DNA from: a virus
Length of the DNA: 22,339 bases
UHGV virus genome: UHGV-0337617
Strand: one strand, 5' to 3'
Shown here piece after piece: positions 2-6,407 of this stretch. The number at the start of each line of letters is the position of its first letter. The first letter of the stretch is position 1. The position numbers and the translations under genes are program-made. A model generated the notes under the pieces. The model had not been told where the DNA came from, did no database searches, and saw nothing but the letters and a program-made list of their open reading frames with translations.

Positions 2-1753
2 CGTTTTGAGCTGATGGTGAATGAAGTGGCACGTCATGCCGGAGCGTCATCACAGAGTGCAGCGGCGGCAAAGAAATCCGAAACGGCAGCGACATCATCG
101 AAGAACGCGGCGAAAACCTCAGAAACGAATGCAGCTAACAGCGCACAGGCGGCAGCGGCCTCGCAGACTGCATCGGCAAACTCCGCGACAGCAGCCAAAA
201 AATCAGAAACCAGCGCGAAAAATAGCGAGACAGCCACAAAGGCCAGCGAAAAAAACGCAAAATCCAGCCAGACGGCAGCGAAAACCAGTGAGACGAATGC
301 CAAAGACAGTGAAGCCAACGCAAAGGTGAGCGAAACAGCGGCGGCGAACTCGGCGAAAGCATCGGCAGCAAGCCAGACGGCAGCAAAAGCAAGTGAAGAT
401 GCTGCCAGAGAATACGCAAACCAGACAGCAGAGCCGTACAGATATGTTTTACAGCCGCTGCCGGATGTGTGGATACCCTTTAATGATTCGCTGGATATGA
501 TTACGGGCTATTCTCCGGGTTATAAAAAAGTGAAGATTGGTGATAATGTGGTTCAGGTTGCCAGTGATAAACAGGTTAATTTCAGTCGCGCATCAACGGC
601 AACATATATCAACAAATCTGGCGAACTGAAAACGGCGGAAATTAATGAGCCACGATTTGAGTGTGATGGCCTGCTTATTGAGGGGCAAAGAACGAACTTC
701 TTCCCGAACAGTACAGACCCTTCGAAGTGGAATAAGTCAACTTCACTGGACGTTACAGAAACAGGCACAGATAGTTTCGGGTTTAATTATGGCCGGTTTG
801 TCGTACAGGATTCGATTGTTGGTACAAGTAAAGCGCATACCATTACCGGGCTGTATTCGAGTACCGGAGGGGTTGATACTTCAGGGGACGAAAAGCATGT
901 AACTATATCCTGTCGGGTAAAAAGTGAAGTTGATAATATCGCCGTTCGTATTTTATTTGAACATTATGATGGGGAGGTAAGGACATCAATAGGAGCAGCA
1001 AACCTGAACCTTACCACCCGCATAATTAGCAAGACAGGTCAGACAAGCCGTGTTACAGCAAGGTCTGTTAAGGATGATGCAACTGGCTGGATATTTTTTG
1101 AGGCTACATTAAAAGCAGATACAACAGAAAATACGGTTGGTGGTTTTGTCCAGTATTCTCCGGATACAGGGCAGATGGTTGCATCAGGGGATTATCTCGA
1201 TGTAACCACTCCACAGATTGAGGCTGGTACAGGCGCATCATCTTTTATTGTTACGGGGACGGCACCGGTAACGCGGGCAAGCGATATGGTTACAGTTCCG
1301 ATTAAGAATAATCTTTATAATCTTCCTTTTACGGTTCTTTGTGAGGTACATAAGAACTGGTATAAAACGCCAAATGCAGCACCGCGTGTTTTTGACACAT
1401 ACCGGCATCAGGCAGATGCGGGGATCGTAATGGGGTTTGGTTCATCAGGTGGGTACGACGGTTTTCCGTATTGCGATATAGGTGGTTCAGACCGACGAAT
1501 AAATGAAAATGCCGGGCTGGAAAAAATGCTTATTGGTATGCGGGTAAAGTCCGAACGGTCCACATGTGTAGTCAGTAACGGTAAGTTAAGCAGCGAAACT
1601 AAAACCAAATGGGAATATATCCGGAGTACAGCAACCATTCGCATTGGTGGACAAACTACAGCAGGATTACGCCATTTATTTGGGCATGTGAGGAATTTTC
1701 GTCTCTGGCATAAAGAGCTAACAGATGCGCAGCTTGGGGAGGTTGTGGAGTGA
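2..1753 (+). CDS. Tail fibre protein, 5'-partial (frame is open to the window start); N-terminal degenerate Ala/Ser/Thr/Lys-rich repeats
   Basis: Long ORF with no in-frame stop upstream of nt 14; repeated K-x-S-E-T/N-A motifs typical of lambdoid side tail fibres; followed by tail-fibre-associated ORFs and a Tfa remnant. Confidence 0.75.
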   Translation, partial: RFELMVNEVARHAGASSQSAAAAKKSETAATSSKNAAKTSETNAANSAQAAAASQTASANSATAAKKSETSAKNSETATKASEKNAKSSQTAAKTSETNAKDSEANAKVSETAAANSAKASAASQTAAKASEDAAREYANQTAEPYRYVLQPLPDVWIPFNDSLDMITGYSPGYKKVKIGDNVVQVASDKQVNFSRASTATYINKSGELKTAEINEPRFECDGLLIEGQRTNFFPNSTDPSKWNKSTSLDVTETGTDSFGFNYGRFVVQDSIVGTSKAHTITGLYSSTGGVDTSGDEKHVTISCRVKSEVDNIAVRILFEHYDGEVRTSIGAANLNLTTRIISKTGQTSRVTARSVKDDATGWIFFEATLKADTTENTVGGFVQYSPDTGQMVASGDYLDVTTPQIEAGTGASSFIVTGTAPVTRASDMVTVPIKNNLYNLPFTVLCEVHKNWYKTPNAAPRVFDTYRHQADAGIVMGFGSSGGYDGFPYCDIGGSDRRINENAGLEKMLIGMRVKSERSTCVVSNGKLSSETKTKWEYIRSTATIRIGGQTTAGLRHLFGHVRNFRLWHKELTDAQLGEVVE

Positions 1754-2331: not shown

Positions 2332-2341
2332 AAAAAGGTGA

Positions 2342-2473
2342 GCTGTATATGCAACGGCGGAGGAAGAAACCCCGTTGCTGGAAGCCTGGAAAAAGTATCG
2401 GGTGTTGCTGAACCGTGTTGATACATCAACTGCACCTGATATTGAGTGGCCTACGAACCCTGTCAGGGAGTAA
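2342..2473 (+). pseudogene. C-terminal remnant of a tail fibre assembly (Tfa) gene (43 codons, no start)
   Basis: Translation ...[37 protein letters not shown] matches the conserved C-terminus of E. coli prophage Tfa proteins as recalled (e.g. TfaR ...[32 protein letters not shown]); in-frame TGA immediately upstream at 2339-2341. Confidence 0.6.
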
Positions 2474-2588
2474 TCATTGGGATTATGCCGCAGCACGTCT
2501 TAAGCAAGAACGTGCTGCGGTTGGATGGTGAACTTTCGATAGTGCGAGTATTGAATGATTTCCAGCCGTTACAGATTTTACGTGCTAA

Positions 2589-2837
2589 TTAGTGAACAAA
2601 CCACTCGTCAGCAGACTCCCAGGTATCTTTCAGAGTTTCCTGAACAAAAGTTTTAGCTGAATCTTTATCGGCGGTGCGCGTAACAGAAAGGCCATCGTTG
2701 CTGGTAGCTTTTACGATCACCTCTACATCGTCATAACGTTTACTGATGCGTCGGGTTAATTCTTCCTTTAACGCATCCACAGCACCGGTTGGCATTTTAG
2801 TCATTTTTTCTTTGGCTATGCAGATTTCAATACGCAT
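2589..2837 (-). CDS. dinI: DinI-like DNA-damage-inducible protein
   Basis: 82 aa; MRIEI.IAK...L..EL.RRI...Y....V.V..........DK......ETW.SAD.WFV resembles E. coli DinI; GAGGGA RBS; LexA boxes upstream. Confidence 0.8.
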
Positions 2838-2922: not shown

Positions 2923-2982
2923 TTGGGGCATGCATGGGGCAAAAATATTTGTTGTGGGGCATTTTGGGGCATGATTGGGACA
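2923..2982. repeat. Cluster of five direct repeats (A/T)TGGG(G/A)CA; candidate integrase arm-type sites (attP arm)
   Basis: ttggggca, atggggca, gtggggca, ttggggca, attgggaca within 60 bp; the unit TGGGGCAT(G/C)ATTGGGACA recurs at 3175-3192. Confidence 0.4.
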
Positions 2983-3128
2983 CTTTGTTACATATGAACT
3001 TTGCCGATTTTTATATGACATGGAAATACAACGCTTTGATTCTTCTAAATAAAAAACATGCTCTTGGGCGTTCTTTAGTGATTTTTAAAAATTCCGTATC
3101 ACGCAGTTAACATGACGGGTATTAAGGA

Positions 3129-4442
3129 TTAACTTACTGATTTTAATAAGCCTCTGGTGTCACTTTGGTGACTATGGGGCATCATTGGGACATAATCTGT
3201 CAGCTTCTGATTCAGCATTGCGATCTGTTCTGCATTGCTGTCAGTCATCCATGCTCCGTATACATTGAATACCATCTGGGCACTTGCATGGCCCATCTGG
3301 CTGGCAATGAAGCTTGGGTTTGCTCCGGCAGATAATGACCAGCACGCATAAGTGTGTCGTGACTGGTATGCCTTTCGATGCCTGATCCCTGCACGCTTAA
3401 TGGCTGTTTCCCATGAGTCACCTACAGAATCGACTTTGTAGACAAAACCTACCTGTTCGCTTTTTCTAACCACTTGAGGGTTAAACACGAAAGTACATTC
3501 ATGGTTCACTGAACGTCCATATTCACGTAGTTGCACCTTGATGTTGTACTGCTTACCCAGTCTTGTCATTTCAGCCTGATTTTTCAGGACACTGATAGCG
3601 GGCTGGATAAGGTGCACAACCCTGTTTGTGCTTGCTTCAGTTTTCGGTAGAGTGAACTCACCAAGTTTCGTATAATTGCGCCTGATGGTAATTGTTCCTG
3701 CCTTCAGATCGATATCTTCCCAGGCCAGGGAGACCAGTTCACCGTGACGCATTCCTGTGTACACAGCCAATGACCACAGGTTTTTCGTCTGCTGATGTCG
3801 GCAAGCATCTATCAGGCGAATAAATTCGTCACGAGTTAGCGGATCTGGCTCTGCCCTGGCTCTTTTAAGAGGCTTAATTCCCTGGAAGGGATTTGCTTCT
3901 AAGTAACCGTGATCTGCAGCAAACTGAAACATTCCAGCGATTGTCGTCATGTAATAATTTACAGTAACGACGCTCCGTCCTTTTGCTGCTGCTTTGTTTT
4001 TCGTTGAATTCTGATACCCGGTCAGCAAATCTTTCCTGATATACAGCAATTCCTCTTTGGTTACCGATGACACCAGTTTACTGCCTCCAATTTTCGGAAC
4101 CATCGTTCTTGCAACGGATTCATAGCGATTGAATGCATTTGCAGAGATTTCCATTCGTTTCAGATCCAGCCACTTTTCTTCAAGTTCCTTCACCGTAATT
4201 TCTTTTTTACTTACCCCAAAAGCCTGAAGGTTGGGGGAGTCAGGGAACTGTGCAGCATAATCAAAGCTTCCTGTGCGGATGGCAAAACATACTGATGTCC
4301 GCAGTTCCCCGGCGATCTTCCTGTTCTTGGCAGTGTCAGGGACACCAAGATTTTCCCTGACACGTTTACCTTTAAAATTAAACCAGATGCGTAATGTGCC
4401 GCCGTGGTTTTCGACGCCTGTTGGATATTTGACTTTATCCAT
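3129..4442 (-). CDS. int: Tyrosine recombinase / phage integrase
   Basis: 437 aa; C-terminal catalytic region with R...HxxR...Y pattern (GMRHGELVSL, RHTYACW, NVYGAW); GGAGGT RBS; xis-like gene immediately upstream. Confidence 0.9.
   Translation of the reverse strand: MDKVKYPTGVENHGGTLRIWFNFKGKRVRENLGVPDTAKNRKIAGELRTSVCFAIRTGSFDYAAQFPDSPNLQAFGVSKKEITVKELEEKWLDLKRMEISANAFNRYESVARTMVPKIGGSKLVSSVTKEELLYIRKDLLTGYQNSTKNKAAAKGRSVVTVNYYMTTIAGMFQFAADHGYLEANPFQGIKPLKRARAEPDPLTRDEFIRLIDACRHQQTKNLWSLAVYTGMRHGELVSLAWEDIDLKAGTITIRRNYTKLGEFTLPKTEASTNRVVHLIQPAISVLKNQAEMTRLGKQYNIKVQLREYGRSVNHECTFVFNPQVVRKSEQVGFVYKVDSVGDSWETAIKRAGIRHRKAYQSRHTYACWSLSAGANPSFIASQMGHASAQMVFNVYGAWMTDSNAEQIAMLNQKLTDYVPMMPHSHQSDTRGLLKSVS
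3174..3192. repeat. Second copy of TGGGGCAT(C)ATTGGGACA repeat at the 3' end of int; candidate arm-type site
   Basis: Matches 2965-2982 except one base; lies inside the last codons of int. Confidence 0.4.
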
Positions 4443-4497
4443 CGATACCTCCAGACGCCCAAGAGCGATACGAGCTTACATATTTCATGATATTAAA

Positions 4498-4734
4498 TCA
4501 CCTGGGTTGTTTGTTTTTCATTGAGGCGACCCAGGCATCTATTGCTTTTCTGTTATACATACATTCACTGGAAGGCTTTGGATTACCGTCTGGTGATACG
4601 TGAATATACTCTCTTCCAACCATCCAGCATTCTTTCCGGGCCCGAAGAATTGTGCCTGGTTTGAGCCCGGTAATTGCGATAAGAACGCTTTCACAAACCC
4701 ATTCATTGGGAGCCAGTTGAATCACATTGCCCAT
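4498..4734 (-). CDS. xis: Excisionase-like DNA-binding protein
   Basis: 78-aa basic protein directly upstream of int in the same orientation; GAGGT RBS. Confidence 0.65.
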   Translation of the reverse strand: MGNVIQLAPNEWVCESVLIAITGLKPGTILRARKECWMVGREYIHVSPDGNPKPSSECMYNRKAIDAWVASMKNKQPR

Positions 4735-4742
4735 GTATTACC

Positions 4743-4889
4743 TCACACAACACTCAGCCCACGGCAGTGGCACCACACTTCAAACATTCGTTTCACAATT
4801 TCACGACAGTAGAAGCCGTCAACATCTCGCGTCAGGTCATAGCGATTGCCGTAACGCTGGCGCACCCATAGCTCAAACGCTTTATTCAT
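4743..4889 (-). CDS. Small hypothetical protein (48 aa), not in supplied ORF track
   Basis: ATG preceded by AAGGAAG RBS; its stop codon sits inside the xis RBS (operon-like packing); MNKAFELWVRQRYGNRYDLTRDVDGFYCREIVKRMFEVWCHCRGLSVV. Confidence 0.35.
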   Translation of the reverse strand: MNKAFELWVRQRYGNRYDLTRDVDGFYCREIVKRMFEVWCHCRGLSVV

Positions 4890-4892
4890 TCT

Positions 4893-5135
4893 TTACTTCC
4901 TTTTCATGGCCCGTAATTTTTTCAGATGAGCCTCCTGCTCTGTTTCTGCCAGAATTTGTCGGTATTCCTGGTGATCAATCCGTTCAAACAGTTCATTGAA
5001 ATCGTTTATTTTTACTGACTGTGTTCGCCCATCAATTCTTCTGTACAACACAGTGTTGTTTATGCAGCGAATAATTATTACCGGGTAACCGGCACTGTCG
5101 GTATACAGTTGTCCCTGATTAATCAAAGCGAACAT
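4893..5135 (-). CDS. Hypothetical protein (81 aa from internal Met; longest ORF would start at 5258)
   Basis: Start at Met42 avoids a 92-nt overlap with the upstream gene; GAGAGCAGGAG upstream. Confidence 0.45.
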   Translation of the reverse strand: MFALINQGQLYTDSAGYPVIIIRCINNTVLYRRIDGRTQSVKINDFNELFERIDHQEYRQILAETEQEAHLKKLRAMKRK

Positions 5136-5166
5136 TTTTTCTCCTGCTCTCTGAATAGTGAGAACT

Positions 5167-5538
5167 TCAGAGCCGTATGTTTGTAGCGGGTTCAATACTG
5201 ATAATTTCTGCTGAGATAAGCATCCCGGCAAGCCAGAGCTCTCCGGACAGGTCTTCATCCTGGCATGTCAGTTCGCCAATATTAATGGTGGCCATGATAT
5301 CTGTTTCCCCTGTACGCTCATCCTCGACTTCTTCATAAGGCAGCGTTGCGTACAGGCTTTCAATAGCGCAACTGATAACATCGAGTCCGGTCAGGTTGCC
5401 ACCGACAGTGACTTCGAATGTTTCGCGGTATTCCCATTGCCCGAAAGTTAATCGAACGGTTTGTTTCGCCATGCGTCCGCATGACGTCAGATTTGGGTCA
5501 TAGTTCATTATTTGCGGTTGAGTATTATGAGTGTTCAT
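5167..5538 (-). CDS. Hypothetical protein (123 aa)
   Basis: ORF in leftward operon; no recognised family. Confidence 0.5.
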   Translation of the reverse strand: MNTHNTQPQIMNYDPNLTSCGRMAKQTVRLTFGQWEYRETFEVTVGGNLTGLDVISCAIESLYATLPYEEVEDERTGETDIMATINIGELTCQDEDLSGELWLAGMLISAEIISIEPATNIRL

Positions 5539-5579
5539 CTGCTTTTCCCTTAGCCCGACGGCCTGCCGGGCATATTAAG

Positions 5580-6407
5580 TTATTTAACCTGGATAAATGG
5601 TGTATTGGCACCGCTGGTCATGTATTGCGGCAGCGTGCCGTTCCATTTATTGATGGCTTCCAGCTCCATAACACCGGGGTTCTGACGCAGAGCTTCACCG
5701 CGTAAACGAATAGCATCGGCTTCAGCCTGGGCTTTTGTGCGAATCGCATCAGCCTGTCCGGCAGCTTCCGCGCGCAACATGTTGGCTTCCGCTTCGCGCT
5801 GTTTTACTTCCTGCTCGCGTTGCAGAGTTTTCTGGTTCGCCGTGACTTTGGCATTAATGCTGTCGATAACAGTAGGCGGGTACTCCGGCTTACCCACATA
5901 TGAGAGGCTTATTACCTGAATACCGATGGGCGTCATTTCTTCCTGAATGTCTTTAAGAGCTGCATCCAGCAGCTCAGACTTGCCGCCGTCGATAAATTTG
6001 TCGGTGGTCATTTTGCTGGCCAGTCGGTTGAGTGCGTCGGCTATCTTCTGGCGCAGGTCGGTGTCGGTAATGTCGTCCACGCCTTTGCGGTAGGTCTGAA
6101 AGACTGTGGTAACTTTGGATGGATCAACCTTGTAGGCTACTCCGATGTGGTAACCAATGGTTGTTCCATCGCTCATCTGGAAACTGAATGGATCATCGTA
6201 GGTCTTCATCTGCTTAAAGGTCGGGAAGATATAAACTTCAGTGTTCCAGCCTGTCCAGTAGCGACCAACACCGACCACTTCACCGACGCCTTTGTCGTCG
6301 CCAAGTTTGTTGACTTTGATGCCCACATTACCAGGCTCAACACGATCACAACCGACAAGGCCAATGGCAGGCAGAACAATGGCTAAAGAAAAAATAATTT
6401 TTTTCAT
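5580..6407 (-). CDS. SPFH/band-7 (prohibitin/stomatin-like) domain lipoprotein
   Basis: 275 aa; signal peptide with lipobox LVGC; central band-7-like region and C-terminal Ala/Glu/Arg-rich coiled coil (AEANMLRAEAAGQADAIRTKAQAEADAIR). Confidence 0.75.
   Translation of the reverse strand: MKKIIFSLAIVLPAIGLVGCDRVEPGNVGIKVNKLGDDKGVGEVVGVGRYWTGWNTEVYIFPTFKQMKTYDDPFSFQMSDGTTIGYHIGVAYKVDPSKVTTVFQTYRKGVDDITDTDLRQKIADALNRLASKMTTDKFIDGGKSELLDAALKDIQEEMTPIGIQVISLSYVGKPEYPPTVIDSINAKVTANQKTLQREQEVKQREAEANMLRAEAAGQADAIRTKAQAEADAIRLRGEALRQNPGVMELEAINKWNGTLPQYMTSGANTPFIQVK

Follow-up and report, generated by a model that had tools for sequence, protein, structure and literature searches.

Cryptic prophages of Escherichia coli K-12 carry pseudogenes of the tail fibre assembly gene (tfa). 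In phage lambda, the side tail fibre gene and tfa (stf-tfa; orf-401/orf-314/orf-194) lie between lom/J and the att-int region. According to PMC9608196, which cites North et al. 2019, the N-terminal domain of Tfa proteins is variable and binds the tip of the fibre, and the C-terminal domain is helical and conserved; because only the C-terminal domain is conserved in this way, the 3' end of tfa stays conserved in DNA. The locus considered here occupies the same position as lambda stf-tfa in a 22,339-nt stretch of the virus genome UHGV-0337617 (the window, with positions counted from its first letter), which spans the middle of a temperate, lambda-like E. coli phage in attP (phage) configuration. 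On the left, the N-terminal 159 amino acids of Stf are shared with lambda: lambda Stf aligns only with aa 3-159 of the full-length Stf (688 aa, locus L001), at 73% identity and up to the start of a repeat linker rich in Ala, Ser, Thr and Lys. On the right, lambda homology covers window 2358-2522 at 87% DNA identity, which corresponds to the last ~116 nt of tfa (~37 codons) and ~50 nt past the stop, including a hairpin. The distal fibre, however, is unrelated to that of lambda, and in place of a complete tfa the window has two small open reading frames (ORF92 and ORF97, named for their length in codons) followed by a tfa pseudogene fragment without the N-terminal fibre-binding domain. From the limits of the lambda match on both sides, the exchanged unit is the distal fibre and what follows it, from the stf linker (~aa 160) to the tfa 3' end with its hairpin. 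The fragment (2350-2473) is best read, with a probability of about 0.8, as a non-functional 3' piece of a lambda-type tfa gene and the scar of a fibre-cassette replacement.

Translation of 2300-2473 gives 43 sense codons at 2342-2470, closed by a TAA stop at 2471-2473 and preceded in frame by a TGA at 2339-2341. Fragment residues 7-40 match positions 97-130 of the 131 in the Pfam profile Caudo_TAP (PF02413; E=8.8e-16), with a score of 58.7 bits against a cutoff of 22.1, and so carry the conserved C-terminal domain; profile positions 1-96 are unmatched by the fragment. In tblastn, lambda Tfa aa 158-194 correspond to window 2360-2470 with 86% identity (E=5e-16), and by these scores the match of the fragment to Tfa is far beyond chance. 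Lambda Tfa aa 1-157 have no match in any frame of the whole 22-kb window, so that the N-terminal fibre-binding domain (~150 aa) is absent, and tblastn of full lambda Tfa, orf-401 and orf-314 against the window for other tfa pieces returned only aa 158-194. A fragment that consists of the conserved C-terminal domain alone cannot do the work of a Tfa. When the DNA is aligned with intact tfa genes and with other fragments, tfa homology sets in at ~2350-2358 ('ATGCAACGG...'), and this copy has 3 nt (CGG) inserted that intact tfa genes do not have; ~40 of the 43 codons are thereby assigned to tfa, the first few being junction sequence. The NCBI annotation pipeline PGAP labels the same stretch 'tail fiber assembly protein; incomplete; missing N-terminus', a tfa pseudogene, and as this RefSeq call indicates, the scar is a routine feature that annotation had already recorded.

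An earlier note on this DNA had described the last 43 codons of a tfa gene behind an in-frame stop as a remnant. The description is borne out by the TGA at 2339-2341, the Caudo_TAP match and the match to lambda Tfa, although only ~40 of the codons are truly tfa, and the fragment is no part of a longer gene. No intact tfa frame with a start codon directly follows the fibre gene, since the TGA and the two unrelated ORFs lie between. That frameshifting or readthrough might fuse ORF97 to the fragment was considered and rejected because the ORF97 stop precedes the A-run of the junction spacer and because the A-run, which varies in length between copies, has another length in phage ev243; read directly, the +1 frame from ORF97 runs into the TGA at 2339, and the -1 frame differs from that of tfa. 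PGAP also calls a 48-aa 'hypothetical protein' (WP_001420444.1) at 2446-2592, across the fragment's end and the hairpin; it matches no family, and the call is probably spurious.

The joint between ORF97 and the fragment is widely shared. Among IMG/VR loci holding the junction region, the left joint is identical and continuous with ORF97 in 26 of 26, and the same joint occurs in ~25 GenBank phages among those listed, including phage 21, ev243, 2G7b, PhiR49_1/2, and Tritos. The right end is much more varied, with breakpoints in the IMG/VR loci clustering at 2410, ~2451, and 2527. In the phage 21 group the fragment ends at 2410 (~17 codons kept) and is followed by sitABCD, in Tritos and HannyBb it ends at ~2451, and in ev243, 2G7b, and PhiR49_1 the break is at 2527, beyond which come a methyltransferase and, after it, another tfa fragment; a methyltransferase between two tfa fragments is found in AREA_499 as well as ev243. 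The right end is intact in the window phage and in PhiR49_2, the whole fragment is absent from mEp460_4F5, and the O157 copy has an internal TAG. In an O157:H7 prophage, the effector genes espM2/espW precede the fragment and dinI follows it. The fragment is not peculiar to this phage: the joint is old and shared, and an identical joint with a varied right end has the appearance of one old junction that is now decaying. The stf-ORF92-ORF97 cassette is present in plaque-forming lambdoid phages (phage 21, ev243, PhiR49_2, mEp460_4F5, and many Lambda_ev and PhiR isolates), and no intact tfa lies beside it in the regions examined of plaque-forming phage 21, ev243, and PhiR49_2. The window phage and phage 21 are ~78% identical over 1669-2410 as a whole and 97.5% identical over 2251-2410, a jump in identity that is read from the alignment as a sign of mosaicism. 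In phage 21, sitABCD is an iron/manganese transporter operon directly after the shortened tfa fragment (locus L004, 4970-7954), a position which indicates that cargo was inserted at the tfa-fragment boundary.

The two ORFs between fibre and fragment had been described in the earlier note as acidic and membrane proteins that do not resemble Tfa, and the description is accurate: ORF92 has a pI of 4.26, ORF97 has two hydrophobic segments by hydropathy, and searches of Pfam, PHROGs, and NCBIfam assigned neither to a Tfa family. ORF92 was considered as a divergent Tfa and rejected, with an hhalign probability of 0.04% against lambda Tfa and no Caudo_TAP match in the same three databases. Calling both ORFs unrelated is correct in that neither is a Tfa homologue by sequence or profile comparison, but ORF92 is tightly tied to the fibre type and probably serves the fibre. 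The gene begins with a GTG codon that shares bases with the stf stop (GTGA), and a GGGGAGG ribosome-binding site lies ahead of it. All of its residues (1-92 of 92) match phrog_1361 (E=1.1e-40), the listed function of which is unknown; there are 56 representative clusters, and the AlphaFold2 model is alpha/beta with a pLDDT of 90.9. The homologous fibre C-terminus ends 3 nt or less from the ORF92 start in 79 of 80 IMG/VR loci, and ORF92 homologues overlap the fibre coding sequence in 31 of 35 annotated GenBank rows. The fibre-ORF92 pair is also found in the T1-like phage tuinn, the T5-like phage IrisVonRoten, a Salmonella Tequintavirus, Queuovirinae (JenP2), Dhillonvirus, and the rV5-like myovirus CarlMeissner, so that ORF92 is adjacent to, and inherited with, one fibre tip type across lambdoid, T1-, T5-, and rV5-like backbones. 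No Tfa match occurs downstream of ORF92 in the stretches examined of the virulent phages with this pair (L059-L063 and L066). Because ORF92 always abuts the fibre type and Tfa is never present, ORF92 is the best candidate for the fibre's own accessory or assembly factor, and from this context it probably acts as such.

Other searches with the two small proteins were less productive. Profile searches against PDB sequences gave nothing credible, and the PADLOC anti-phage defence profiles gave no family at E<=0.1 for ORF92 or ORF97. Giant proteins with PKD repeats (P0152, P0163, P0165, and others) were rejected as ORF92 homologues, since they share only a short 'GY.V.[IL]...DD' motif summed over the repeats and are PKD/Ig proteins as opposed to the alpha/beta model of ORF92, which makes the match motif-level noise. 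Some lambdoid variants have a second, "branch" fibre gene between ORF92 and ORF97, the N-terminus of which (MATSTVIPDDIKTLK) is shared with second fibre proteins of T1- and T5-like phages. The shared pattern is M[AV]T.TVIP.DI[KT].LK (loci L068, L075, L062 at ~3280-4370, L009 at 4135-4635, and L010 at 4581-6326), and it may serve to dock a branched fibre. The cassette of the window does not include a branch fibre gene.

ORF97 starts 9 nt after ORF92 and has its own ribosome-binding site. Residues 1-96 of its 97 match phrog_1443 (E=6.2e-58), also listed with function unknown, the AlphaFold2 model has a pLDDT of 94, and none of 569 homologues has a Pfam domain on record. A charged loop (REHTQAEYRWI..FG.GKR.NMPWWGGFD) is near-invariant in alignments from Escherichia to Aeromonas and Comamonas. 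In a survey of the 80 IMG/VR loci, ORF97 is missing from virulent phages with the fibre-ORF92 pair, and among phages it occurs only in temperate ones. In several other temperate phages it comes immediately behind a receptor-binding gene of an unrelated kind: in Leclercia and Aeromonas prophages of the P2/HP1 type, in Halomonas phage phiHAP-1, in an epsilon15-like podovirus of E. coli, where the lysis genes follow, and in a Comamonas prophage, after the J gene. The fibres upstream of it in the Leclercia, Aeromonas, and phiv142-3 loci have no similarity to the window Stf. This placement after unrelated receptor-binding genes, in temperate phages only, argues against a chaperone role and would fit a membrane protein linked to receptor use, as in superinfection exclusion or envelope change. 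ORF97 does not have the arrangement of a moron with its own promoter and terminator, as no plus-strand promoter-like site was found in 1600-2340 by a weak scan for the sigma-70 consensus only. A homologue with 56% identity is present in the chromosome of Aeromonas rivipollensis (locus L012, 6001-6309) amid genes for a pirin, a RIO1 kinase, and lipid A acyltransferases, and phage genes are absent up to 6 kb away; this could be a domesticated or cellular copy.

The fibre itself belongs to phrog_1419 (E=3e-271) and has the Ala/Ser/Thr/Lys repeat linker, then a domain like the head spike fibre of a gene transfer agent (GTA), then a C-terminal beta-rich domain. Stf residues 221-422 score 72.2 bits against NCBIfam GTA_spike_fiber (NF048003), which has a curated cutoff of 36, and the central domain matches PDB 6TB9, the Rhodobacter gene transfer agent head spike fibre Rcc01080, with E=3.4e-5. 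The variable part of Stf lies between conserved flanks, and 802-1669 is the region most divergent from phage 21. The T5-like phage IrisVonRoten is reported to plate on K-12 with restored O16 O-antigen (PMC8594841). Given the GTA-spike-like domain and the plating of this T5-like phage with a related fibre, the target of the fibre is by analogy likely to be a glycan rather than lambda's OmpC, and a glycan specificity is what we infer for it. The "non-standard host range" proposed in the earlier note is accordingly a plausible suggestion from the sequence, with the qualification that the cassette is a common alternative among lambdoid phages and not an oddity.

If both small ORFs are considered with the fibre, a joint reading can be offered tentatively, at slightly less than even odds. 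ORF92 would represent a new protein class, assembly or accessory factors specific to a fibre, that replaces Tfa for lectin-type (GTA-spike-like) lateral fibres of lambdoid, T1-, T5-, and rV5-like phages, and ORF97 would be a conserved protein of the inner membrane that is encoded immediately behind the receptor-binding gene in temperate phages of several morphotypes, possibly for superinfection exclusion or envelope modification by way of the invariant charged loop.

From what is observed of the fragment's identity, the shared joint, the erosion pattern, the coupling of ORF92 to the fibre, and the absence of Tfa, we infer the following order of events. An ancestral lambdoid phage would have exchanged the distal two-thirds of its stf, along with tfa up to codon ~155, for a cassette with a GTA-head-spike-like, lectin-type distal fibre, its own 92-aa accessory gene, and the gene for the 97-aa membrane protein. 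The left joint of the cassette would lie within the stf repeat linker, at ~aa 160, and the tfa fragment would mark the right joint. There would have been one founding event only, and the joint would be identical everywhere because that event happened once. The earlier note had proposed that the fibre tip module was exchanged by recombination at the conserved tfa 3' end. The exchange is consistent with a tip that differs from that of lambda and with lambda homology that resumes exactly at the tfa 3' end, but the founding joint joins unrelated sequence, and for this reason the founding event would not have been homologous recombination but illegitimate recombination, or an insertion and a deletion. 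Later spread and reshuffling of the cassette probably did proceed by homologous exchange at the conserved tfa 3' end. The fragment would since have decayed passively, and together with the adjacent hairpin it would offer a patch of homology for further insertion or exchange of cargo. No chaperone would have been lost in this history, as the fibre type is never found with Tfa and always with ORF92.

A different order of events, in which an ancestor had stf21-ORF92-ORF97 together with an intact and needed tfa and the 5' part of tfa was deleted later in this lineage, is hardly credible. Deletions do occur at this place, as in mEp460_4F5 and the right-hand truncations, but Tfa residues before 132 are absent within 3 kb downstream of ORF92 in all 80 IMG/VR loci and were found downstream of ORF92 in none of the examined GenBank cassette phages, every copy holding the junction has the same left joint, and the virulent relatives of the cassette show no tfa in the stretches examined. 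It is similarly very improbable that the fragment is one half of a split chaperone, with ORF92 as a new fibre-binding domain and the fragment translated separately (for example from TTG 2375, giving 32 aa) as a C-terminal oligomerisation domain acting in trans. The modular structure attributed to Tfa in the source cited above would allow such a division, the 43-codon frame is still open in the window, and a GGAGG lies ~10 nt before TTG 2375; however, this GGAGG is Glu-Glu coding sequence that is also present in intact tfa genes, viable phages keep ~17 codons (the phage 21 group) or none (mEp460_4F5), the O157 copy is interrupted by its internal stop, and the virulent phages with the same fibre-ORF92 pair gave no Tfa match downstream of ORF92.

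An RNA element could also be what is kept, either a 3'-derived small RNA like IS009 or CssrB or a terminator or 3' stabiliser of the late operon, with the tfa codons riding along. The hairpin is strong (-33.5 kcal/mol, z=-4.66), forms the right limit of the lambda-homologous block with the recurrent breakpoint at ~2527 just after it, and is conserved after lambda tfa and in HK97, which matches in the hairpin region only. Window 2487-2519 equals the terminal hairpin of the Rfam model of the Shigella small RNA CssrB (RF02799) and stands beside a partial match to IS009 (RF02111) at 2329-2430. This explanation is nevertheless unlikely, because both scores are far below the Rfam gathering scores (68.4 against 117 bits for IS009 and 32.6 against 76 bits for CssrB) and the IS009 match is without a structure component; its 3' 70 nt are conserved tfa coding sequence, which suggests that the IS009 family was itself built on a tfa remnant. 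There is no plus-strand promoter-like site upstream in the scan described above and no U-tract after the hairpin stem, mEp460_4F5 is without the codons, and the phage 21 group keeps only part of them and is also without the hairpin. The hairpin is treated here as terminator-like, an end that the convergent late and dinI transcripts share. Replacement of the fibre cassette with the fragment left as a scar is the reading retained, and the following observations weigh against it. The fragment is 87-98% identical to live tfa genes, so that it is either young in each lineage or refreshed by gene conversion, two cases that are inseparable here; the partial matches to IS009 and CssrB leave room for an RNA ending at the hairpin; and the adjacency of ORF92 and the fibre, taken alone, could mean linkage and not function.

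Features of the window from the side tail fibre gene to the integrase.
Feature	Position	Strand	Basis or remark
stf, 3' 1.7 kb	2..1753	+	5' end of the gene beyond the window edge
ORF92, acidic protein of 92 aa	1750..2028	+	phrog_1361
ORF97, membrane protein of 97 aa	2038..2331	+	phrog_1443
Junction spacer, from the ORF97 stop to the onset of tfa homology	2332..2349		Alignment; in-frame TGA 2339-2341 and A-run
tfa 3' fragment including TAA, probable pseudogene scar	2350..2473	+	Lambda Tfa aa ~155-194
GC-rich hairpin, conserved	2487..2521		Between the convergent late operon and dinI-like gene
DinI-like gene	2589..2837	-	Pfam DinI, E=1.1e-19
Candidate attP core, 23 bp	3100..3122		Limits of the match to prophage copies
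Integrase	3129..4442	-	Pfam Arm-DNA-bind_2 and Phage_integrase

Beyond the integrase, the window has genes for an excisionase, a CI-like repressor, Rha, DnaC/DnaB-like replication proteins, and a DNA methylase. The block from stf to dinI forms the right end of a prophage beside yecD in 63 complete E. coli genomes, and in strain ZH063 the integrase is ~40 kb from the stf end in the same prophage. Prophage copies align to the window through 3122 and then continue into yecD, and the int side aligns from ~3100; the candidate att core is drawn from these two limits. Five of the six TGGGGCA repeats in the window cluster at 2924-3181, flanking the candidate core, and are likely candidates for integrase arm sites. 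A "second prophage" after dinI was considered and rejected, as the integrase is that of the same phage read across attP. Two exact matches to the LexA-box consensus (CTGT-N8-ACAG) lie upstream of the dinI-like gene, at 2853-2868 and 2881-2896, where ~0.28 matches to this pattern would be expected by chance over the whole window. A protein of the SPFH/Band 7 family is encoded on the minus strand at 5580-6407 (E=2.8e-31), in the early-left region between xis and the repressor, and may be an accessory gene.

The scar matters little by itself, and further study is worthwhile only for the uncharacterised ORF92 and ORF97 families; literature searches found no published account of ORF92, ORF97, or the tfa joint. 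Lambdoid phages repeatedly exchange fibre tips, and take up cargo such as sitABCD, a methyltransferase, or type III effectors, at the conserved tfa 3' end with its hairpin, and as a landmark this boundary is useful for reading prophage mosaics and for designing chimeric fibres. Transfer of this fibre type into engineered particles would likely require the fibre-linked ORF92.

The locus can be placed among known systems beyond lambda at several levels. The Rfam families IS009 and CssrB share the tfa 3' sequence and the terminal hairpin with the window, but as partial matches below gathering, and the region is not assigned to either. The O157:H7 prophages with type III effectors have the same tfa 3' fragment, hairpin, and dinI-like gene closing the late region, and PGAP calls the fragment a tfa pseudogene missing its N-terminus there as well; fragments in these and other prophages differ from the present one in the cargo upstream, which is espM2/espW in O157 (with an internal stop) and a methyltransferase in ev243. 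The cassette as a whole is already well sampled and common among lambdoid phages, and is present in the classical phage 21. The cassettes of phage 21 (OL657228, CPT_21_22 to CPT_21_24), ev243, PhiR49_2, mEp460_4F5, and the Lambda_ev isolates have the same order of stf, 92-aa ORF, and 97-aa membrane ORF, and the junction into the tfa fragment is identical where the fragment is kept, but the central receptor-binding part of Stf is divergent, DNA homology comes in patches, and the proteins are 53-60% identical overall. The lateral fibres of T5-like IrisVonRoten (Bas32), T1-like tuinn, and rV5-like CarlMeissner have homologous distal domains with 42-59% identity (42% for the C-terminus of the CarlMeissner fibre against the window Stf) and an overlapping ORF92 homologue with 33-53% identity. 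In contrast to the window phage, these phages are virulent, do not have ORF97 or the tfa fragment, and use other N-terminal anchors, and most have a second "branch" fibre gene after ORF92.
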